Assembly (NCBI GenBank): GCA_037443365.1 | Contig: JBBIOM010000002.1 | Span: 61,331-125,330, forward strand | Length of the DNA: 64,000 nucleotides | Direction of reading: 5' to 3' | From: Armatimonadota bacterium | GTDB taxonomy: Bacteria > Sysuimicrobiota > Sysuimicrobiia > Sysuimicrobiales > Humicultoraceae | Shown here: in pieces, positions 7,660 through 19,199 of the stretch | Layout: the number at the start of each line of letters is the position of its first letter | Numbering within the stretch: the stretch's first letter is position 1 | The notes under the pieces: generated by a model | What the model was told of the DNA's origin: nothing | The model's input: only the letters and a program-made list of their open reading frames with translations | Databases searched by the model: none | Program-made: the position numbers and the translations under genes

Positions 7660-9024
7660 TCAGATCTTGCCCGCAGAGCTGGTCAGCCCCCGCATCTGAA
7701 GCAGCGGGCGCGGATCGGTGATCAGCCCCCCGAGGCCTGCGGCCTTCTCCTGGAGACCGAACGCGATCGCCATCAATTGCGTGAAGTAGAACGCCGGCAT
7801 GGGCGGAAGCCCGGCCGCGCGTGCCGCCTCCTCCTGCCTGGCGTCGAGGTTGTTGTGGCACAGCGGGCAGGCCACCGCGAGCGCCTCGGCGCCGGCCGCC
7901 TGAGCGTCGCGCAGGATGCGGCCGGTCAACTCGACCACGAGGTCCGGGCGCACTACCGCGTGGCCGGCCCCGCAGCACTCGGTCTTGTGCGACCAGGCCA
8001 CCGGAACCCCGCCCAGCGCCGAGATCAACCTGTCCATCTCCATCGGATTTTCGGGCCGCGCCGCACCCGTGACCGCGGGCGGCCGCGTGAGCAGGCAGCC
8101 GTAGTAGCAGGCCACCCGGAGCCCGCGCAGCGGGTTACGCGCCTGCGCGCGGATTCCCTCGAGCCCGCCTTCGAGCAGCGTGTGCAGGATGTGCTGTACG
8201 CGCAGCCCTTCGGGCGACCGGTCAGGAGCGTCCACCTGCGCGTGACGCAGGCGGGAGAAGCAGGCGGCGCAGGGCGCCGTCACCGCGGTGTGCCCCGCCC
8301 GCGCCGCCAGGCTCAGGTTGGCCAGCGGCAGTTCCAGCGCGAGATCCGCGGAGGTCTGGTGTGCCGCCGTCGCCCCGCAGCACCGCCACGCTTCGATCTC
8401 ACGCAGCCGCACCCCGAGGGCCGCGGCCACGCCGCGCGTCGAGGCATCGTATTCCCTGGCGCTGGCGTGCAGCGCGCAGCCGGGGTAGTAGGCGATCTCG
8501 CCCGGCTCCGCCCGCCGGCCCGAACGGCGGTTCGGGAGGCCGGGGATCAGCCGCAGCTTGCCGGCGCGGAACAGCCTGAGCGCGAACCTGCTCTGGCGGA
8601 GCGGCTGGCGCATCCGCATGTTCACCTCCAGGCCTACCCCCGCCTCGAAGAGGCGCCCGAAGAGACGGATGCTGCGGATCGCCGCCTGCGTGAAGACCGG
8701 CGCCTCGGGCACGCGCGCCGGGATGCGCCGCGATGAAGCCACGATCCTGAGCGCGTCCATGACGCGGGCCACGTCGATCCCCTGGGGGCAGCGAGCCGTA
8801 CAGGCCTGGCAGGAGGCGCACAGCCAGAAGGTGTTGCCCCGCAGCAGCCGATCGTCGAAGCCGAGCTGCAGGGCGCGCATGGCGGCATGAGGCGCCAGAT
8901 CCATCTCGGCGGCCAGCGGGCATCCGCTCGTGCACACCTTGCACTGGAAGCACAGTGCGGGGTCCTGGCCGCTCTCCTGCGCGACCTCCCGTGCCAGCAT
9001 CGCGCGCGTCGCTGTCTGTTCCAT
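7660..9024 (-). CDS. Heterodisulfide reductase HdrC-HdrB fusion
   Basis: N-terminal CFQCKVCTSGCP and CASCQACTARCP (HdrC), then two CCG domains (YYPGC..CCG..CAAC; YYGC..CCG..CPLC). Start re-placed at ATG 9024. Confidence 0.9.
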   Translation of the reverse strand: MEQTATRAMLAREVAQESGQDPALCFQCKVCTSGCPLAAEMDLAPHAAMRALQLGFDDRLLRGNTFWLCASCQACTARCPQGIDVARVMDALRIVASSRRIPARVPEAPVFTQAAIRSIRLFGRLFEAGVGLEVNMRMRQPLRQSRFALRLFRAGKLRLIPGLPNRRSGRRAEPGEIAYYPGCALHASAREYDASTRGVAAALGVRLREIEAWRCCGATAAHQTSADLALELPLANLSLAARAGHTAVTAPCAACFSRLRHAQVDAPDRSPEGLRVQHILHTLLEGGLEGIRAQARNPLRGLRVACYYGCLLTRPPAVTGAARPENPMEMDRLISALGGVPVAWSHKTECCGAGHAVVRPDLVVELTGRILRDAQAAGAEALAVACPLCHNNLDARQEEAARAAGLPPMPAFYFTQLMAIAFGLQEKAAGLGGLITDPRPLLQMRGLTSSAGKI

Positions 9025-9494
9025 CACGGGGCATCTCCGATCTTCGCCCGCCGAAGCGGCGTCGGTCCCAACGCCGTGATGCGCTCGGTCATCTCCCGGG
9101 CTATCTCGGCGAACCGCGGGCCCTGGGCCGACGACAGGTTGAACATCTCCAGGCGCGCCCCCCCGATGCCGGCCTCGTCGAGACGCTCCTTGAGGTACCG
9201 CACACGCGCCTTGGCATGGTAGTTGCCGGCCTGGTAGTGGCACTGCCCCTCCAGGCACCCGGCCACGAACACCCCGTCCGCTCCTGCCTCGAAGGCGCGC
9301 AGGATGTAGATCGCGTCAATCCCGCCGGTGCAGGGCAGCAGCACGACCTTCACATTGGGCGGATACGGCAGGCGCATCACGCCTGCAAGGTCTGCCGCCG
9401 CGTAGGCGCAGTAGAAGCAGCAGAAGGCCACTATCTCAACCGAGGCCTTGGACGCCTCCGATTGCGCTGGGGCCACGGTAAGGTCAGCCGACAC
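9024..9494 (-). CDS. mvhD: MvhD/FlpD [2Fe-2S] subunit
   Basis: Motifs FCCFYCAYAAADLAG, LPCTG, GADGVFVAGCLEGQCHY and LGPTPL. Confidence 0.92.
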   Translation of the reverse strand: MSADLTVAPAQSEASKASVEIVAFCCFYCAYAAADLAGVMRLPYPPNVKVVLLPCTGGIDAIYILRAFEAGADGVFVAGCLEGQCHYQAGNYHAKARVRYLKERLDEAGIGGARLEMFNLSSAQGPRFAEIAREMTERITALGPTPLRRAKIGDAP

Positions 9495-12400
9495 GCGCCC
9501 CCTCCATCTCGCCCAGCAGCGCCTCGATCTTGGCGATCATCTGATCGCGCGAGTAGTGCCCCAGGCTGAGCGCGCTGCCCGGGCACACAGACACGCAAAG
9601 GCCGCATCCCTGGCAGCGTGTGGGTTCGACGACGGCTATTCCGTCGCCGTCGAACGATATGGCGTCGTAGGCGCAGACCCGGAGGCATGTCAGGCACGTC
9701 GTGCAGCGGTCGCGATCCACCTGGGTGACGACGCCTCCGACCTCCAGGCTATCACGCCACAGCAGGGTGCTTGCCCTGGCCGCCGATGCCAGGGACTGGG
9801 CGATCGCCTCGTCCAGCAACTTGGGGTAGTGCGCGCCGCCGCAGAGGAACAGGCCTTCGCTGGCGAAGTCCGCCGGGCGCAGCTTGACGTGGGCTTCCAG
9901 GAAGAAGCCGTCGGCCGACGCCGGCACCTTGAAGATCTCCGTCAGGCCGCAGGCGCCTTCTGAGGGCACCTGAGCCGGCGCCACCACCATCAGCCCGGCA
10001 TCGAGCGTGATCTCCTCGCCGAGCGCCTGGTCCCGCAGGGTAACGCGGACGGCCTCTGGAGTGCGCGTGACTTGCGGGGGCTCATCCGGCGAGTGGCGGA
10101 ACACCACGACCCCGGCCTGCCGCGCCTGCGTGAAGAGCACCTCGGATGTCCCGTAGGTCCGGATCTCGCGCGCGATGACCGTGACCGGGACCTCGGGATG
10201 GGCCCGTTTGAACGCCAGCGCGGCGGCCATGGACTGGGCGCAGCACGTGCGGCTGCAGTAGAAGGGCATGCGGTCCCAGGGGCCCGCGCAGAGCAACATG
10301 ACCACCGAGGCCGGGACCTCAACGGGCGCCACAACCGGAGTGAGACGCGCCTCAAACTCTGAGAGCGTTATCACGCGCGCATCCTCGCCGACCCCGTAGG
10401 CGGCGGGCTTCCACTCCTGCAGGCCGGTGGCGATGACGGTAACCCCGTGCGAGATGGTGTGCTCGCCGTCCGGGCCTGCCACGGTTGTCTCGAAGTTGCC
10501 GACCGTGCCGTGGGAGGACCCGATCGTGCAGCCGGTCAATACGCGCACGCGGGGATGGCTGGTTGCGCGTTCGGCCAGCTCCCTCAGCAACTCCGCGGGC
10601 GCGGTCCCCCCCCCCAGGCCAGAAGCGGTGAACGCAGCCGGCCGCCAAGCGTCTGCGACCGCTCCACCAGCGTGACCGGGAATCCCTGCTCGGCCAGGTT
10701 GAGGCTGGCGGTCAGGCCCGCGACGCCTCCGCCGATGACAAGCGCTTCGCGCCGCATCGGCACCAGCACCTTGTGAAGCGGCGACAGGCGCGCGGCGCGA
10801 GCGACGGCCGCCGTGATCAGGGCCTGCGCCTTCTCCGTGGCGCCAGCGGGATCATCGCGGTGAACCCAGCTACACTGATCGCGGATGTTGGCCATCTCGA
10901 ACAGGTAGGGGTTGAGCCCGGCCTCGCGCAGCGTCTCGCGGAAGATGGGTTCGTGTGTGCGCGGGGTGCAGCTGGCCACGACCACCCTGTTCAGGTGCGC
11001 TTCGGCCACGGCCTCCTTGATGCGTATCAGGGTGTCGGCCGAGCAGGTGTAGAGGGACGTCTCGGCCAGGACCACGCCCGGCAACGTCTTGGCATGCGCG
11101 GCCAGGCCGGCCACGTCCACGACGCCGGCGATGTTCGATCCGCAGTGGCACACGAACACCCCTATGCGCGGCTCCGGATCCAACAGCATCTCAGGAGGAT
11201 AGACCTTGGCTGAGATCTGGGTCCCGCGGGCCGACCCGATGATGGCCATCGCCGCGGCGGCCGCGCCGCTGCCGTCCGTGACTGAATCTGGAATGTCCCT
11301 GGGTCCGCGGAATCCGCCGGCCACGAACACGCCGGGGCGGCTGGCCTGCATAGGCGCAGAGGGCACCGTGGCGGCGAACCCGTGCTCGTCGAGGGCTATG
11401 CGGGCGGCGCAGGCAAGGGCTGCGGCACCCTTGGGCGGGGTCAGGCCCACGGCCAGCACAACCAGGTCGGCCTGCTCCTCGCGCACTGCGCCGTTCTCCT
11501 CGACGCGGAAGTGAAGCGACCGGGTCTGTGCGTCTTCCCGAAGGGCCGCCACGCGCGTGCGCACGAACCGGATCTGTTCGCGGCTGGCCCGTTCGACGTA
11601 GGCGTCGAACCCCTTGCCGAAGGCGCGCATGTCCGCGTAGTAGACAGTGCATTCGGTGCCCGGAGCGTGCTCGCGGGCGAGTATCGCTTCCTTGGTTGCG
11701 TACATGCAGCACACCGAGGAGCAGTACCGGTTCTGCTGATCGCGCGAGCCCACGCACTGCAGGAACGCTATGCGCTTGGGTTCGGCGCCGTCGGAGGGAC
11801 GAGCAACGTGTCCCTGCGTCGGCCCCGACGCCGACAGGAGCCGCTCGAACTGCGGGCCGGTGAGGACGTTCGGGAAGCGGCCCGCGCCGTAGGCGTCGGC
11901 AAGCGCGGCGTCGAACGGCTCGATGCCAGGAGCCAGGATCACGGCGCCGACATTCAGCGTCTCCTCCCGTTCGGTCTCGGCATGGTTGATCGCCTCACGG
12001 CGGCATGCCTGCACGCAGGCCAGGCACTCGGCGCACACGCCGCAGGACAGACAGCGCGCAGCCTCAAACCGCGCCTCTTCTTCGGTCAGCCCCTCGTCCA
12101 CCTCGATGAACGAGGCGCGCCTGACCTCTGCCGGGAGTTCGTGAACGCCTTGGCGCGGCTGCGGCCGTATCTGACCGCGCGCCAGGCGGTCCTCGACCTC
12201 CTCCAGCGTGAGTCTGGCGACCTGGGGTTGCGGGTCGGCCTGCAGGAACGTTCCGCGCAGGTACGCGTGAATGCCTTGTGCGGCCCGGCGGCCCGCGGCG
12301 ATGGCGTCCACGATGTAGGCCGTGCCAGTTGCCAGGTCCCCTCCGGCGAACAAACCGGGGTAGCCCGTGGACTGCGACTCCGCGTCCACCTGCAGCGCCC

Positions 12401-14654
12401 CCCAGGGCGTGGTTACGAGGCCGGGCAGATCAGAGAAGATCTCGTTCTGCGGGGCCAGGCCTATCGCGAAGACAATCGTGTCCGCCTCTATCAGGTGCTC
12501 GCTACCCTCGATGAGTTCGAGGTGCAGCCGCCGGTTCTCGTCGAAGTGCATGGAGCGCACCCCCCGGCACTCCATGCCCGCGGCGCGGCCGTCCCGTTCC
12601 ACGACGCGGACGAACGACGTGGAGGGATACACCCGCACGCCCTCTTCTTCGGCCGCTGCCACCTCCCAGGGGTGAGCCGGCATGGCCCCGCGCGCCTCGG
12701 GACATGCCAGGAGCACCTCGGCGCCGAGCCGCACGCATGTTCGGGCCACATCGATGCCGACGTTGCCGCCTCCCAGCACGAGCACCCGCCGACCCAGAGA
12801 GACCGGTTGCCCCAGCCGGGCGTTCTGCAGAACGTCGGTGCTGACCAGGACGCCCGGCAGATCGGCCCCAGGGATGGGGAGCTTGCGGGCCCGGTGGGTT
12901 CCGGTGGCCAGGAAGATCGCGCTGTACCCTTGCGCGAATAGCTCGCGCACGTGCGAGACGCGGCTGGAGGTGCGTATCTCGACGCCCAAGGCAGCGATTG
13001 CCGCGACCTCGCGCTCAACTATGCTCGCCGGCAACCTGTGCTCCGGGATGCCGACGCGCATCATGCCTCCCGGAACAGGCAGCGCCTCGTGGACGGTCAC
13101 GCGGTAGCCCAGCACGGCCAGATCCCGGGCCGCCGTCAGCCCGGCGGGGCCTGAGCCTACAACCGCCACGCGTTCGGGGTGCGCCGGCTCCACCTGCGCC
13201 GGAGGCTCGCCCGGCCGCGCATATGCCCAGTCGGCCACGAACCGCTTGAGCGCAGCGATGTTCACGGCCCCGTCAACGAGCGAACGCGAGCAGGCGTCCT
13301 CGCACCGGTGGTTGCACACTCGGCCGCAGATCCCGGGAAACGGGTTCTCCATCTGGATCACGCGGAACGCCTCTTCGTAGCGTCCCTGGGCCACCAGCGC
13401 CACGTACCCCTGCGCCCTCTGGTGAATGGGACAGGCGTCGCGGCAAGGTGCACGCCCCCGCTTGTCAATGGCGTATGCGCCTGGAACGGCCTGGGCATAG
13501 GAGCGGTATATGGCACTGCGCGCGGCCAGCCCCGCGTTGAACTCGCTGGGCACGCCCACAGGGCACGCCGCGGCGCAGTCACCGCAGCCTGTGCAGCGGA
13601 GCGGATCCACGAAGCGGGGGCGCTGCCGTATGGTGGCGGCGAAGTCCCCGGCGCTCCCCTCCAGACTCTCCAGCTCGGCCAGCGTGTGGATCTCGATGTT
13701 AGGATGCAGCCTGACACCCGACAGCTTGGGCGACAGGATGCACATCGCGCAGTCGTTCGTGGGGAAGGTCTTGTCGAGCGTGGCCATGCGACCGCCTATG
13801 GCTGGGCCGCGCTCGACCAGGTGCACCTTGATGCCAGCGTCCGCCAGATCGAGCGCAGCCTGGATTCCCGCGATCCCGCCGCCGACCACCACGGCCGCGC
13901 CCACCACGCCGTCGCCGGTCTCCTCGGGAGGCCCGGCCGGTCTTGCCTCCTCGATCGCGGTGGCCACGCGGGCTGCCCCCCCGGGGGCCGGGCCTTCGTC
14001 GAGGTCGTCGCGCGCGGCCGCGGGCACTCGCACCATGCGGTCCAGCAGCTCGATCTGATCGGCCAGCCGCTGGCGGCAGCGCACAAGGATGTGCCGCTGA
14101 TCATCGGTGAGATCGCCGGCCGTTCCCGCCAGCATCGCCTCCAGGTAGCCGGCCACCCTGGCGGCGGGAGACCGCAGGTCGTACGTGGCCACCGCCTGCA
14201 TCTGGGTCAGTCGGGCTCGCACCTGCGCCATGCGCGATTCGATGAGGTCCACTAGACCGGCCATTATGGGATACCCGATCTCCCAGTCCAGCGATATCAA
14301 CCTGCGCAGAACCGGGCCGCTGATGGCCACCAGAACCGTGGGCTCGACGCTGACCGCAGACATCGTCAGCACAAACGGCGGCACAAGGGCAGACCATCCG
14401 AGGCTCTCGCCCGCCCCGAGCACGGACACGACGACCGACCTGGGCAGGTCCCCTTCCTGCTCCGGTGTTCGCATCTCCAGGGCCACCCGGCCCGTGTGGA
14501 TCACGAAGAAGTCGCGGGCCTCGTCCCCTTCAGAGAAGATGCGCTCCCCCGGCTGGAAGGAGACAACGGTGCCCAGCGAGGCCACCAGGTCTCGGGCCGA
14601 TGGGCTAAGCCCTGCGAGAAGGGCGCACCGGCCCATGGCTTCACGCTGGATCAT
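9484..14654 (-). CDS. hdrA: Large HdrA/HdrL-type flavoprotein (HdrA + inserted GltD/NfnB-like module + second HdrA repeat) with N-terminal cNMP-like/pseudo-HisKA extension; frameshifted at a G10 tract (10606-10615)
   Basis: ORF 10584..14654 has VVGGGIAG, LDKTFPTNDCAMCILSPK, APCRDACP..CGRVC, FLQCVGSRD..YCSSVCC, VFVCHCG, ASCTPRTHE and ANIRDQCSWVH. ORF 9484..10590 continues the second HdrA repeat (YCSRTCC, EAHVKLRP, CTTCLTC, CQGCGLC). One extra G would join them into ~1723 aa. Confidence 0.88.
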
Positions 14655-15837
14655 CGGCAGATGTCTCCCCCTGCCCCACCGGCGGCGAATCGCCGGGGGG
14701 GAGTTCGACGGCGAGGGCCCGGGGTATCGAGAGCGTGAAAACCGCGCCGCTTGTCTCTCCTGGAGGCGGGCTCTCTGCCCAGATCTGACCGCGGTGGGCC
14801 TCGACGATCCTCTTCACGAGGGACAAACCCAGCCCCAACCCCTTCGACTGGGCCATCTGCCCCCTGTAGAACTCGTCGAAGATGCGGGGCAGATCGGACG
14901 GCGCTATCCCAGCGCCGTTGTCGCGCACCTGCACCCGGATCTCATCTCCCCGGTCCAGGGCGGACACGACGACTTCTCCGCCGGAGGGCGTAAACTTCAC
15001 GGCGTTGTCCAGGAGGTTGGTAATGGCTTCCTGCATGCGCAGCGGCGCCATCAAGAGCGACGGCATGCCCCGAGGCACCAGCGCCTCCAGGCGCACTCCC
15101 TTTGCCCGGGCCGCGGCCGCCACGTTCTCCACGGCCTTCTCAATGATATCCTGCATGGATGCGACGCCCAGCTCCGCGGAGAAGTCGCCGGTCTCGATCC
15201 GGGAGACCCGCAGAAGGCTGTTGATGAGCTCGATCAGCTCCTGCACACGGATGCTGCACCGCTCCAACATCTCTCGCTGCCGGTCAGCGACCTCCCCGGC
15301 GTAGCCGCCCAGCATCACCTGAAGGTAGCTCTCCACGGCCGCCAGGGGCGCCTTCAGTTCGTGTGACACCATTGCGATGACGAAGCCCAGCTTGGCCCTC
15401 GCCTCCTGGAGGCGGCTTCCCACCAGCTGGGCCAGGCCGCGCATCAGGAGGGCCCCGGCCCGAGGGTCCTCGGCGATCAGTCGTTCCAGCATCTCGCGCT
15501 CGAATGCCACGACCGTCGTGGGCTGAATTGCCACGGCCGACATGGTGCGCGTGTGAGGAGGCACGAGCGCGGACCAGCCGAAGCAGTCGGGGGGACCAAG
15601 CACCGCGGCGAATGTGCGCCGCTCGCCCGCCTCGGACCTGCCGATCTGCAGGTCCATCTCGAGGGCGACGCGTCCCCGCTCAATGATGCACAGGTGTGTG
15701 GCGCCCTCCCCCTCCTCGAAGATCCGCTGCCCGGGCTCGAACGATCGCTGCTCACCCATAGCCGCCAGGCGGCGCAGAAGCGCCACGGGCAGGTCCTTGA
15801 ACAGGGACGAGCGCTCCAGGGCCGCCTGGCTGGCCAT
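14641..15837 (-). CDS. Soluble sensor histidine kinase, cNMP-binding-like domain + HisKA + HATPase_c
   Basis: N-terminal FEPGQRIFEEGE..GRVALE..FGWSAL..RTMSA. H-box SHELKAP, N-box NLLDNAVKF, G-boxes DNGAGI and GLGLGL. Confidence 0.92.
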   Translation of the reverse strand: MASQAALERSSLFKDLPVALLRRLAAMGEQRSFEPGQRIFEEGEGATHLCIIERGRVALEMDLQIGRSEAGERRTFAAVLGPPDCFGWSALVPPHTRTMSAVAIQPTTVVAFEREMLERLIAEDPRAGALLMRGLAQLVGSRLQEARAKLGFVIAMVSHELKAPLAAVESYLQVMLGGYAGEVADRQREMLERCSIRVQELIELINSLLRVSRIETGDFSAELGVASMQDIIEKAVENVAAAARAKGVRLEALVPRGMPSLLMAPLRMQEAITNLLDNAVKFTPSGGEVVVSALDRGDEIRVQVRDNGAGIAPSDLPRIFDEFYRGQMAQSKGLGLGLSLVKRIVEAHRGQIWAESPPPGETSGAVFTLSIPRALAVELPPGDSPPVGQGETSADDPA

Positions 15838-15838
15838 G

Positions 15839-16723
15839 CTACTCCACTCCCGGAGCCGCCAGGCCGCCGGCCTCGAGCACGCGCGGCAGCAGGTGATCCC
15901 ATCCCATGGCCATCAGGTGGATGCCCTGGCACAGCGGCCGCAGTTCCCGGATCAGCCCGGCGGCCACGCCCACGCTGGCCTCCTGGCGGTCCTTGGCTGT
16001 CTCCATGATCTCGATGAGGCGGCCGGGAACGTGCACGCCCGGGACATTCCGGTTCATGAACCGGGCCATACCGGCGGACTTCAGCATGATGATGCCTGCC
16101 AGTACCGGCTTGCCCACGGGCCGGGCGGCTTCCATGAAGCGGGCGAAGCCGTCCGGGTCGAAGATGGCCTGGGTCTGGAAGAAGTCGGCGCCGGCCTGAG
16201 CCTTCTTCGCCATCTTGAGCAGTTGGGGCTCAACCGGATCCGCGCCCGGGCTGACGACCGCGCCCAGGAGGAACTCGGGGGCGCCGTCCAGTTGCTTCCC
16301 CGCCATGTCCTGCCCCTGCTCCAGCCCGACCGCGGCGCGCAGCAGGGAAACCGAGTCCAGGTCGAACACGGGCTTGGCCTGCGGGTGGTCACCAAGCTTC
16401 ACGTGGTCTCCCGTAAGGCACAGCACGTTCTCGATGCCCAGCGCCGCCGCGCTCAGGAGATCCGACTGCAGCGCAATCCGGTTTCTGTCGCGGCAGGTGA
16501 CCTGGAAGATGGGCTCGAGGCCCCGCTCCCGAAGCATGTGGCAGAGCACCAGCGAACCCAGGCGCATCACCGAGCTCTGCTGGTCGGTGACGTTGAACGC
16601 CTGCACCCGTCCCCGCAGGCGCTCGGCTTCCTGAATGGCTCCTGCCACGTTGATTCCCTTGGGCGGGGAGGCCTCGGCCGTCACCACGAACCGGCCTCCG
16701 GTCAGGGCCTCTCGCAGGGTCAT
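15839..16723 (-). CDS. metF: Methylene-THF reductase MetF (copy 1)
   Basis: Motifs VTAEASPPKG, NVTD, QVTCRDRNRIALQSDLL, LCLTGDH, VFDLDS, QTQAIFD and GIHLMA. Confidence 0.92.
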   Translation of the reverse strand: MTLREALTGGRFVVTAEASPPKGINVAGAIQEAERLRGRVQAFNVTDQQSSVMRLGSLVLCHMLRERGLEPIFQVTCRDRNRIALQSDLLSAAALGIENVLCLTGDHVKLGDHPQAKPVFDLDSVSLLRAAVGLEQGQDMAGKQLDGAPEFLLGAVVSPGADPVEPQLLKMAKKAQAGADFFQTQAIFDPDGFARFMEAARPVGKPVLAGIIMLKSAGMARFMNRNVPGVHVPGRLIEIMETAKDRQEASVGVAAGLIRELRPLCQGIHLMAMGWDHLLPRVLEAGGLAAPGVE

Positions 16724-17145
16724 GGCGTCTCAGAGCCTCCCTCGGACCGGCCGCGGCGTGCCAGCAGCTTCTCCACCCTTTCTAGGAGCAGGCCCGGAGG
16801 AGCGGGCTTGTCGAGATAGTCCTCTGCCTCCAGGCTGAGCCCTGCGCTGACCGGAAGGCCGGACTCCCCGTGGCGCTCGGCGAACGAGGTGAGCATGATG
16901 ACAGGCACCGAGGAGAGCACCGGGTCGCGCTTCAGCTCCTCGCAGACCGTGAAGCCGTCCTTGAACGGCATGATCACGTCCAGGATGATCAGGTCGGGCG
17001 GATCCTCGCGCGCCAGACGCAGCCCCTCAACGCCATCCAGCGCCGCGGTCACCCGATAGTTGCGGCTCTCCAGCACCGTCCGGGTGGTCTCGACCAGGTC
17101 CGGGTCATCGTCAATGAGCAGAATGCGCTCCTGGGTCTTAGCCAA
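16720..17145 (-). CDS. Single-domain response regulator (receiver only)
   Basis: Motifs ILLIDDD, PDLIILDVIMP, IMLTS and DYLDKP. TTG start at 17145 with a GAGAGGTG RBS. Confidence 0.88.
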   Translation of the reverse strand: MAKTQERILLIDDDPDLVETTRTVLESRNYRVTAALDGVEGLRLAREDPPDLIILDVIMPFKDGFTVCEELKRDPVLSSVPVIMLTSFAERHGESGLPVSAGLSLEAEDYLDKPAPPGLLLERVEKLLARRGRSEGGSETP

Positions 17146-17149
17146 GGTC

Positions 17150-17566
17150 CTACACCTCTCCGGGGTTGCCCGATCGCTTGCCGCGCCTGTCCAGCACCTT
17201 GCGGACACGATGCAGCAGATCCACCGGCCGCACCGGCTTCTCGACATAGTCGTCCACGTCCATGGCCAGCCCGGCCTCGAGTTCGTACCTGCGCCGGCTG
17301 GCCTCTTCGCCCACGGCAGAGAAGATCACAATCGGAATGGTCGCCCAGCGGGGTTTCTCCTTCAGGGCCCGCACCACGGCGTATCCGTCCATCCTGGGCA
17401 TCATCATGTCCAGGATGATCAGGTCGGGGGCCTCCCGGCGTATGCACTCGAGCCCCTGCTCGCCGTCGGGGGCGGTCTCGACACTGTAGCCAGCAGCCTC
17501 CAGTACCATCCGGACCGCCACGGTGATATCCTGATCGTCGTCCACCACCAGGATCCGAGGTTGCAT
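17150..17566 (-). CDS. Single-domain response regulator (receiver only)
   Basis: Motifs ILVVDDD, PDLIILDMMMP, IFSA and DYVEKP. Confidence 0.9.
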   Translation of the reverse strand: MQPRILVVDDDQDITVAVRMVLEAAGYSVETAPDGEQGLECIRREAPDLIILDMMMPRMDGYAVVRALKEKPRWATIPIVIFSAVGEEASRRRYELEAGLAMDVDDYVEKPVRPVDLLHRVRKVLDRRGKRSGNPGEV

Positions 17567-17598
17567 TCAGGCCAGCCCTCCTTCTCACGCCTGTTGCG

Positions 17599-18516
17599 TC
17601 ATATCAGCGGCCGAGGCAGAAGCCCGGCCCTCTCCGCCAGAACGGGGACGACCTCTTCCCACCCCACGGCCATGATGTGCACACCCCGCACGCCTGGTAT
17701 GTCGCGCACGGCGTCAATGATGTCCACCGCGATGGCCATTCCCTCGGCCTTGGGATCCGAGGCATCTTCCATGCGCGAGACCACGCCGTCAGGAACGACA
17801 ATGCCGGACACGTAGTCCCGCATGTAGCGCGCCATACCAACCGATTTCAGGGGCACGATTCCGGCCAGGATCGCCGTCTTCTCGTGCAGCCCCCGCGCCC
17901 TGACCTGGGCCATCCAGCGCGCGAAGATCTCGAGATCATATACGGCCTGCGTCTGTATGAAGCTGGCGCCCGCGCGCACCTTCTTCGCCAGGCGCACCAC
18001 CCGGTATGGAAGCGGGTCGGCGAACGGGTTGGCCGCGGCCCCGATGAACATCGAAACGTCGCCGGTGAACTCATCGCCACTCTGGAACCTGCGCGCATCG
18101 CGCATGCCGGCCAGCACCTGTATCAGCTGGATCGAGTCGAGATCGAAGACGTTCTTGGCCCCCGGGTGGTTGCCGAACTGCTGGTGGTCCCCGCTCAGGC
18201 ACAGGAAGTTGCGCACTCCGGCCCCCACGGCACCCAACACGTCCGACTGCAGCGCCAGGCGGTTCCGGTCGCGGCACGTCATCTGCATCACGGGGTCCAG
18301 ACCCATGCGGCGCAGATGGATCGCGCAGGCCAGGCTGGACATGCGCACGATCGCGGTCTGGTTGTCGGTCAGATTGATGGCGTCACAGCAGTGCCGGAGG
18401 ATCTCGGCCTTGCGCTCCACGACGCCCAGGTTCGTGCCCTTGGGCGGGCCCAGCTCGGCGGTCACAGCGAACCGCCCAGCGGCCAGCACGACCTCCAGGT
18501 TGCTGCCCGCGGGCAT
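17599..18516 (-). CDS. metF: Methylene-THF reductase MetF (copy 2)
   Basis: Motifs VTAELGPPKG, NLTDNQ, QMTCRDRNRLALQSD, LSGDHQQFGNHP and GVHIMA. Confidence 0.93.
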   Translation of the reverse strand: MPAGSNLEVVLAAGRFAVTAELGPPKGTNLGVVERKAEILRHCCDAINLTDNQTAIVRMSSLACAIHLRRMGLDPVMQMTCRDRNRLALQSDVLGAVGAGVRNFLCLSGDHQQFGNHPGAKNVFDLDSIQLIQVLAGMRDARRFQSGDEFTGDVSMFIGAAANPFADPLPYRVVRLAKKVRAGASFIQTQAVYDLEIFARWMAQVRARGLHEKTAILAGIVPLKSVGMARYMRDYVSGIVVPDGVVSRMEDASDPKAEGMAIAVDIIDAVRDIPGVRGVHIMAVGWEEVVPVLAERAGLLPRPLI

Positions 18517-18521
18517 GGCCG

Positions 18522-19199
18522 CTACACCTCCTCCTCGACCATCTCGCGCAGGTCAGGCCGCGTGATGCGGCGCGGCCCGCCGGAGTGGCTCGCCTTCCAG
18601 TCCCGGGCCGGGATGATCTCCTCGAGCTGGTCCAGGCGTCCCTGCGCTTCCAGGCGCTCGTGGATCAGAACCCAGGCGCAGGGATTGTCTACCGACAGCT
18701 CGCAGTGCCCATCCTGGGGCCCTCCGCAGGGGCCGTTCAGGAGGCTCTTGGCGCACCTGGCCACCGGACAGATCCCTCCGGTGCGGTGCAGGAGGCAATC
18801 ACCGCAGGCCATGCACCGCTCACCCCATATCCCAGGGGCCTCGGTCAGCCCCATGAAGGCGGTGTTGAGCCCAGGCAGCGCGATCACACCTCCGTAGCGC
18901 TCCCCTATTCCCTGCACACCCACCCCGCATCCCAGGGACAGCACGGCATCGGCCCGGCGCACCGCCTCGCCGACCTGATCCAGGAACTCCCACTCGCACT
19001 GCCGCTGAACCACGGCCTCCCCGATCTCGACCTCTGGGCCCAGCACCGAGCGCAGCGCGGTGGCCACCACGGCGACTTCCTTCTCTCCCCCGGCAAAGCA
19101 GACAGTCGTGCACGTTCCGCAGCCGAGCACCAGGAGGCGGCGGAACCCGCTCACCATCTGCCGGATCTCGTCCAGGGGCTTCTGTTGTGCAACAATCAC
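18522..19199 (-). CDS. metV: MetV (MTHFR small Fe-S/Zn subunit)
   Basis: Motifs MIVAQQKPL, GCGTCTTVC, RQCE, GCGVG and CMACGDC..GGICPVARCAKSLLNGPCGG. Directly upstream of metF. Confidence 0.9.
   Translation of the reverse strand: MIVAQQKPLDEIRQMVSGFRRLLVLGCGTCTTVCFAGGEKEVAVVATALRSVLGPEVEIGEAVVQRQCEWEFLDQVGEAVRRADAVLSLGCGVGVQGIGERYGGVIALPGLNTAFMGLTEAPGIWGERCMACGDCLLHRTGGICPVARCAKSLLNGPCGGPQDGHCELSVDNPCAWVLIHERLEAQGRLDQLEEIIPARDWKASHSGGPRRITRPDLREMVEEEV

Follow-up and report, generated by a model that had tools for sequence, protein, structure and literature searches.

Among the described systems closest to the one reported here are complexes of the MetVF-HdrCBA-MvhD type, one of which reportedly occurs in Moorella. 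In Sporomusa ovata, the genes for the methylene-tetrahydrofolate (methylene-THF) reductase of this type lie in one cluster of metV, metF, an hdrA-like gene, mvhD and an hdrC/B-like gene, a complement shared with our locus (Kremp et al. 2022, PMC9430772, in the parts available to us). A second relative is HdrL of Desulfobacterium autotrophicum, for which the HdrL type, consisting of HdrA, a GltD-like NAD(P)H-type insert and a second HdrA half, was defined in 2009; the portion of that paper at our disposal describes a large soluble HdrA-like protein with such an insert and with mvhD as its neighbor, as is the case here (PMC2702500). We analyzed a 64,000-nucleotide stretch of DNA from an Armatimonadota bacterium (contig JBBIOM010000002.1, positions 61,331 to 125,330; hereafter the window), in which an HdrL-type flavoprotein carries, fused in frame to its N terminus, a head of about 210 residues that sequence comparison identifies as a true paralogue of the sensor and DHp half of the histidine kinase encoded next to it. 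This fusion has been conserved, and purifying selection acts on it.

All features described here lie on the minus strand and are given in window coordinates. The HdrA-like open reading frame (ORF) P0001 (10584-14654, 1356 residues) shares its first 14 nucleotides (nt) with the end of the ORF of a parent-type sensor kinase, P0002 (14641..15837, 398 residues), in which Pfam recognizes cNMP_binding at residues 31-124, HisKA at 152-217 and HATPase_c at 265-373. An initial annotation, made from the sequence of the window, had aligned the two N termini end to end. BLASTP bears this out, matching residues 1-237 of P0001 to residues 1-235 of P0002 with 93 of 240 positions identical (39%), 59% positives, 8 gap positions and an E-value of 9e-43, and all of the motif pairs cited in that annotation are present in the alignment. 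Because the DHp part matches by itself (28/71 identical, 39%, E 4e-19, for 75 residues against the 77 of the kinase's Pfam HisKA region), the likeness is not due to the cyclic nucleotide monophosphate (cNMP) domain only. The head begins at ATG 14654, with a GGGGGAG ending approximately 10 nt upstream, and consists of a cNMP-like beta-barrel sensor domain (residues 1-123, 14286..14654; Pfam, AlphaFold2 (AF2), Foldseek and PDB profile) followed by a degenerate, HisKA-like DHp helical hairpin (residues 124-208, 14031..14285; homology to the kinase HisKA, and AF2). At the phosphoacceptor position, the codons confirm Tyr158 (TAC, 14181..14183) opposite His159 of the kinase (CAC, 15361-15363). The Pro/Ala/acidic linker that the annotation had put at about 40 residues is 41 residues long and rich in Pro, Ala, Gly and Glu (residues 210-250, 13905..14027); it passes directly into the FAD domain, and the reported absence of a HATPase domain holds, as Pfam finds no HATPase_c in P0001.

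A Pfam check of the N-terminal module, suggested in the same annotation, recovered the sensor and fell short on the hairpin. The window head matches cNMP_binding (PF00027) at residues 31-121 with 51.5 bits against a gathering cut-off of 27.5, as do all 11 of the orthologous modules described below, but its HisKA (PF00512) score of 16.9 bits lies under the cut-off of 26.9. None of the 11 modules reaches that cut-off: the other ten score 25.2, 24.8, 24.6, 20.2, 20.2, 19.0 and 12.2 bits, with three giving no hit. Because the HisKA scores fall below threshold, the automatic JGI name of three protein clusters, 'HdrA-like polyferredoxin/CRP-like cAMP-binding protein', mentions the CRP-like part only; by that name, the cNMP part of the head had been machine-annotated earlier. 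An AF2 model of the head, built from an alignment of 37 sequences (mean pLDDT 90.3), shows beta-barrel strands across residues 28-112 and two helices, 124-175 and 184-208, joined by a loop. The first, long helix is predicted to continue the sensor's C-helix, and the hairpin is modeled at a pLDDT of approximately 86-94; a modeled bundle with the kinase is considered below. Both a PDB profile search and Foldseek retrieved CRP- and cNMP-type proteins, including 3mdp, through the cNMP part; in neither search did the hairpin match a kinase chain.

Within the sensor, a signature (WSA.VPP...T.SA) is invariant in heads and kinases alike. The phosphate-binding-cassette region reads GW...FVLT in the head and GW...HTRT in the kinase, with Trp at the Glu position in both; we take the cassette Glu and Arg to be the cyclic-nucleotide contact residues. 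The replacement of Arg by Leu in the RTMSA motif, noted initially, is real in the window genome but not peculiar to it or to heads, as the cassette Arg is missing from all modules and also from 2/9 local kinases (those of G038 and G020) and from the outgroup kinase P0020.

We examined the distribution of the fusion across 94 species genomes of the window's phylum. HdrL orthologues, 78-89% identical over the body, occur in 16 of them, and each of the 11 that belong to genera g1 (seven genomes) and g5 (four) has the head fused in frame. A library of 5.8 billion clusters yielded 12 protein clusters with the head-HdrL fusion, our own included, which derive from NCBI, JGI, ENA and Logan; NCBI names two of these as Armatimonadota metagenome-assembled genomes. 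The genome search for cNMP-HisKA-HdrA fusions called for at the outset thus shows that the architecture recurs, although it is restricted to two genera of uncultured organisms. A module search gave no match on the HdrL of all four g3 genomes or of G038, which belongs to another family. Among these headless proteins, that of G019 starts with MIGAAMVVGGG right after metF, and those of G009 and G038 start approximately 20-35 residues ahead of that motif. Searching the module against an exhaustive representative set gave 3180 hits at E<=0.001, and among the best 150 there was no HdrL-sized fusion, those hits that span both module halves being kinase-sized (257-535 residues); the fusion's 50%-identity cluster is probably represented by a different sequence, making this search uninformative on rarity. 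We also considered two short hits that resemble stand-alone sensor-DHp proteins, P0021 (257 residues) and P0030 (289 residues), which end mid-domain and retain the His and which we read as truncated kinases; P0037 (311 residues) likewise keeps the His and has no full HATPase domain. We reject an assembly chimera, since the fusion is found again across 11 genomes and in clusters of four different origins. Over 10884-14800, the window equals a Logan contig from the probable source run with 0 differences, and a contig from a second sample (X2) equals window positions 14003-14252 with 0 differences, the Tyr codon included. Two further runs, X3 and X4, contain no more than small portions of the sequence, and no RNA dataset is listed as containing it. 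Neither these contigs nor the 11 linkers, all of which are in frame, contain the stop or indel that the annotation had named as evidence against the fusion.

The ratio of nonsynonymous to synonymous substitution rates (dN/dS, NG86) was calculated for all 55 pairings among the 11 genomes; depending on the region, 50-55 of these pass the dS filter. Its median is 0.186 for the cNMP part and 0.225 for the DHp part, compared with 0.108 for the HdrA part, 0.132 for the GltD-like part and 0.62 for the linker, where it exceeds 1 against the closest kin. A dN/dS of approximately 0.2 across the module excludes the neutral evolution of the head that the annotation had also contemplated. The linker varies from 23 to 52 residues across the 11 genomes and all of its length changes are in frame, while R161, R166, E172, D185-L190, R194, R196 and Q200 are invariant surface-type residues in all 11 modules. 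Translation mainly from an internal GTG near 13905, which would have detached the head, does not hold as a general explanation. GTG codons are present in the window at 13907 and 13904, 12-15 nt after a GAGGAG, but the corresponding Val codon is GTG in 5/11 genomes and GTT or GTC in the other six, and in none of the 11 does a Shine-Dalgarno-like core lie 4-12 nt from the conserved Val codon (background for in-frame start-like codons, 47/357). A short HdrL isoform may exist in the window genome, although judging by these codons the internal start is not conserved.

To place the head among related proteins, we used a maximum-likelihood tree of 38 N-terminal halves, comprising 18 fusion modules, nine locus kinases (one partial) and 11 other cNMP-HisKA kinases; clusters P0003, P0004, P0010 and P0011 were left out as apparent duplicates, by length and N terminus, of genome rows. 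All fusion modules form a single clade (100/100, stem 0.98), which is sister (96/85) to a clade of the locus kinases (100/99, stem 0.45), and both fall within the other cNMP-HisKA kinases. Module and kinase are 36-44% identical in all genomes that have both. Because the tree contains one module clade, sister to the locus kinases, it points to one partial duplication of the adjacent kinase, rapid divergence of the copy and subsequent constraint, which would make this locus a clean example of a regulatory domain arising via partial duplication of an adjacent gene.

The Tyr at the phosphoacceptor position proved not to be a family trait. In the 11 genomes this column holds His in six (G001-G006), Tyr in one (the window), Phe in two (G020 and G033) and Ser in two (G011 and G031), and in the 12 clusters it holds Tyr in two, His in three, Phe in five and Ser in two. 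The loss of His, whose conservation the annotation had proposed to examine, is therefore not conserved, and Tyr is limited to the window genome and one distant cluster (P0013). By comparison, the acceptor His is present in 22/22 aligned kinases, whose mean column identity is just 28%, whereas the modules have a mean identity of 83% and invariant residues beside the acceptor column. Because the column varies while its neighbors stay invariant, the acceptor site of the module appears released from constraint; along the series His-Tyr-Phe-Ser, each change takes a single base. As a separate observation, Cys193 of the head (14076-14078) and the matching Cys194 of the kinase are invariant in 18/18 fusion modules and 8/8 complete locus kinases. 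Cys193 sits in the core of the modeled bundle. A thiol redox switch is one possibility, which would suit the vicinity of an enzyme of the disulfide-reductase type.

We next consider how the head is distributed relative to the kinase system. The kinase lies immediately upstream of the fusion in all eight of the fusion genomes that have it, with a spacing from kinase to fusion start of -14 to +16 nt in the six measured (G000, G001, G002, G005, G006 and G020). In the remaining three, G011, G031 and G033 (96, 84 and 88% complete, respectively), we found no orthologue of the kinase or of the receiver RR1. What matches the kinase best in them is the head of the fusion itself (41-42%), other kinases matching the DHp-CA part only, at 32-39%, and their best RR1 match is 44-47% identical, whereas the orthologues in G020 and G002 reach 74-87%. 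Nevertheless the head persists in these genomes without the two-component system, with a module dN/dS of 0.07-0.26 among the three; the gene order in G011 is FTHFS, metF, fusion. The converse arrangement is found in G038 (L036, C122 1-3706), where receiver, receiver, metF and kinase precede a headless HdrL in the order of the window. The kinase of G038 groups with that of G020 (96/89), contrary to taxonomy, a hint that the locus has been transferred. Every combination of head and kinase system, four in all, thus exists, and together they form a natural comparison set: HdrL accompanied by both, by the head alone, by the kinase alone and by neither. Because G011, G031 and G033 keep the head under purifying selection without the kinase, the conserved function of the head cannot depend on the kinase.

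The explanation that we favor, with our confidence about evenly divided for and against it, is that the head is a kinase-independent sensing and dimerizing module of HdrL, with a conserved role that requires no phosphotransfer. Residues 1-210 would be a selectively maintained sensor and dimerization head that arose by one partial duplication of the kinase gene, which supplied the cNMP-like domain and the DHp hairpin and left the ATPase domain behind, and a disordered tether of 23-52 residues would link it to the enzyme. Two heads would pair via a DHp four-helix bundle, and the HdrL/MvhD/HdrCB/MetFV complex would thereby gain a dimerizing, ligand-binding head. This head would read the same signal as the sensor domain of the kinase and act directly on the enzyme, perhaps through ligand-dependent docking on the complex or through control of its oligomeric state. 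Because the sensor is constrained like the hairpin and the WSA.VPP...T.SA signature is kept, we infer that the head still binds the ligand of the kinase's sensor; we likewise infer dimerization, ligand sensing as such and any effect on enzyme activity. Several points weigh against this proposal. The canonical cNMP-contact residues appear to be absent, and a cyclic nucleotide is therefore no obvious candidate for the ligand. The long, neutrally evolving linker cannot transmit a conformational change rigidly. HdrL orthologues evidently function without the head in all four g3 genomes and in G038. Lastly, His is retained at the acceptor site in 6/8 kinase-bearing fusion genomes and in 0/3 kinase-less ones, a pattern that fits some phospho-role in g1 and is confounded by phylogeny.

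That the head might instead serve the kinase was suggested in the initial annotation, by which the pseudo-DHp would pair with the neighboring kinase and place it on the Hdr-MTHFR complex. Alternatively, such pairing might silence the kinase in the manner of RetS and GacS; either way, the state or abundance of the enzyme would be coupled to phospho-signaling. The adjacency of kinase and fusion in 8/11 fusion genomes speaks for this idea, as does RetS-GacS itself, a precedent for DHp contact between two different kinases according to the accessible part of PMC8498467. We modeled module residues 1-212 with the N-terminal half of the kinase (residues 1-222), using separate alignments, in three runs. 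The resulting ipSAE values of 0.60, 0.62 and 0.62, against 0.00 for the best control, pass a mark that is reached by 116/157 solved complexes and 2/215 mismatched pairs, and also by proteins closely related to true partners. The runs have at least 84% of contacts in common, partner pLDDT is at least 77, and the modeled interface consists of the C-helix and the four-helix bundle. Because the chains are paralogous and histidine-kinase dimers have been solved in abundance, however, this pass is expected; the model indicates likeness and not a preference for the heterodimer. Furthermore, the module and kinase clades have each fixed different residues at many DHp positions, a pattern that would suit insulation of the two, and the three genomes that hold the head under purifying selection lack a kinase orthologue. 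Tethering is plausible as modeled but not supported as the core function, and as an account of the head we find it rather doubtful.

Less probable still, and in our view unlikely, is a purely structural role, in which the sensor would be a dead passenger and the bundle would merely stabilize an HdrL dimer. HdrA is dimeric in a solved archaeal complex, and the loss of the classical cNMP-contact residues would suit a sensor that no longer senses. However, the sensor is constrained like the DHp part (dN/dS 0.186 and 0.225, respectively) and retains the signature that it has in common with the active kinase. We find it a little harder again to credit that the head is a docking site for the receivers, that is, the missing output of receiver-only regulators, whose phosphorylated form would bind the pseudo-DHp and modulate the enzyme. 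Two receivers that lack an output domain are encoded at the locus, and Y170 and A165 of the head, positions which we take to be receiver-specificity sites, match the kinase. However, other alpha-1 surface positions are fixed differently in module and kinase, the H+11 position is variable among modules, there is no RR1 orthologue in G011, G031 and G033, and in G038 the kinase and both receivers accompany a headless HdrL. The precedent would be DivL, a pseudo-kinase in which Tyr takes the place of the acceptor His and whose DHp docking face binds DivK~P, as stated in the available part of PMC4211667, but DivL keeps the CA domain that the head lacks. That the head has little or no function, being a decaying relic or rarely attached owing to the internal start, is highly improbable, for although GTG 13907 and 13904 follow their GAGGAG at the very point where g3 HdrL begins (MIGAAMVVGGG), the dN/dS of the module, the in-frame length changes of the linker in 11/11 genomes, the GTT or GTC codon in six of them and the GGGGGAG ahead of ATG 14654 all argue otherwise.

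A narrower proposal concerns genomes in which head and kinase system are both present. There, the two-component system might lack a DNA-binding output for the reason that the enzyme itself serves as output: the kinase would heterodimerize with the HdrL head, possibly trans-phosphorylating its His where retained, or phosphorylated receivers would dock on the head. We regard this as a tentative and fairly unlikely extension; if true, phospho-signaling would act as a direct switch on a Wood-Ljungdahl methylene-THF reductase complex of the Hdr type.

The fusion gene lies within a minus-strand cluster comprising metV, metF, two receivers, a second metF, the kinase, HdrL in pieces, mvhD and an HdrC/B-like gene. 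The ORF of metV (18522-19199) is followed by that of the first metF copy (17599-18516), both assigned by Pfam, and then by two receiver-only response regulators (17150-17566 and 16720-17247, together spanning 16720..17566; Pfam Response_reg, 92.6 and 81.8 bits). The receiver ORFs as listed overlap by approximately 100 nt, and the Response_reg match in the second begins at residue 42; its real start probably lies more internally than listed. MetF copy 2 (15839..16723; Pfam MTHFR, E 2e-37) is encoded immediately upstream of the kinase, such that the receiver genes sit between two metF paralogues (15839-18516). Because G011-type and g3 loci consist of FTHFS, metF and hdrL without the kinase system, that system looks inserted into a metV-metF-hdrL cluster. 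Downstream of HdrL are MvhD (9024-9494; Pfam FlpD) and the HdrC/B-like protein (7660-9258 as listed; two Pfam CCG domains and Fer4). The latter ORF as listed begins within mvhD, with an overlap of 235 nt, and its translation probably begins farther downstream than that GTG start.

The flavoprotein itself was initially called HdrA, which is correct as to its HdrA-type flavoprotein class but not as to its extent. It is an HdrL-type protein of approximately 1725 residues, with HdrA, a GltD-like insert and a second HdrA half, that is split in the window; Pfam matches to Pyr_redox_2, Fer4_20 and Fer4, together with the adjacent FlpD gene (mvhD), identify it as such. Up to a premature stop, the body (10584..13904) comprises the HdrA FAD domain, the GltD-like insert (Fer4_20 and Pyr_redox_2) and the beginning of the second HdrA-like FAD domain. 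A frameshift in a run of ten G's (10606..10615) truncates the protein at residue 1356, with the frame lost after residue ~1345, and the C-terminal 368 residues, holding the remainder of the second HdrA half and a 2x[4Fe-4S] domain, are encoded in a different frame (9484..10590). This second ORF is collinear with residues ~1360-1725 of P0003-P0013, full-length relatives are 1695-1738 residues long and read TGGGGCGGCG at the position of the run, and either 8 or 11 G's would restore a single frame that matches them. A Logan contig from the probable source run shows the ten G's as well, the site being covered by that sample only, and the 2.2-Mb genome contains just one other G/C run of length 10. 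Sequencing error, strain variation and a slippage site are all candidate explanations of the run.

We found no description of this architecture in the full-text literature searched, including under HdrA combined with a cyclic-nucleotide-binding domain, most subscription journals being outside its scope; full-text papers joining HdrA, histidine kinase and fusion looked unrelated by title. We regard the domain architecture as new and its component families as known. Post-translational control is, to our knowledge, undescribed both in Hdr-type flavin complexes and at the step of the Wood-Ljungdahl pathway that methylene-THF reductase catalyzes. The central flavoprotein, if fitted with a conserved sensor head, would provide a first handle on such control, and the kinase-derived head hints at direct regulation of this class of redox enzyme in the CO2-fixing folate pathway.

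Each part of the head has known counterparts from which the whole departs. With the cNMP-HisKA-HATPase_c kinases, namely its neighbor and P0017-P0047, it has in common the sensor signature and the DHp hairpin at 36-44% identity, but it has no ATPase domain, a variable acceptor, a HisKA score below cut-off and a stem about twice as long (0.98 versus 0.45). CRP/FNR-type and orphan cNMP-like domains (for example PDB 3mdp, Gmet_1532) have its fold and its variant loop; in those proteins the domain is followed by a DNA-binding domain or by nothing at all, whereas the head runs on into a DHp hairpin. As described in the accessible part of PMC4211667, DivL of Caulobacter resembles the head in having Tyr at the phosphoacceptor, a dimeric DHp used for binding and not catalysis, and single-domain receivers nearby, but it is a stand-alone protein that keeps its CA domain and a conserved Tyr, while the head lacks a CA domain, has Tyr in 1/11 genomes and 2/12 clusters, and sits on an enzyme. 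In RetS-GacS, unlike in head-HdrL, each of the two partners is a complete kinase and neither carries an enzyme, by the account in the available part of PMC8498467. HdrL of Desulfobacterium has no sensor or DHp head in the portion of PMC2702500 available and belongs to a context of sulfite reduction, as opposed to the MetF and MetV of the Wood-Ljungdahl methyl branch here. Lastly, compared with the acetogen MetVF-HdrCBA-MvhD complexes, the HdrA of the window is of the long HdrL type and bears a kinase-derived head, and a two-component system is inserted in its cluster.

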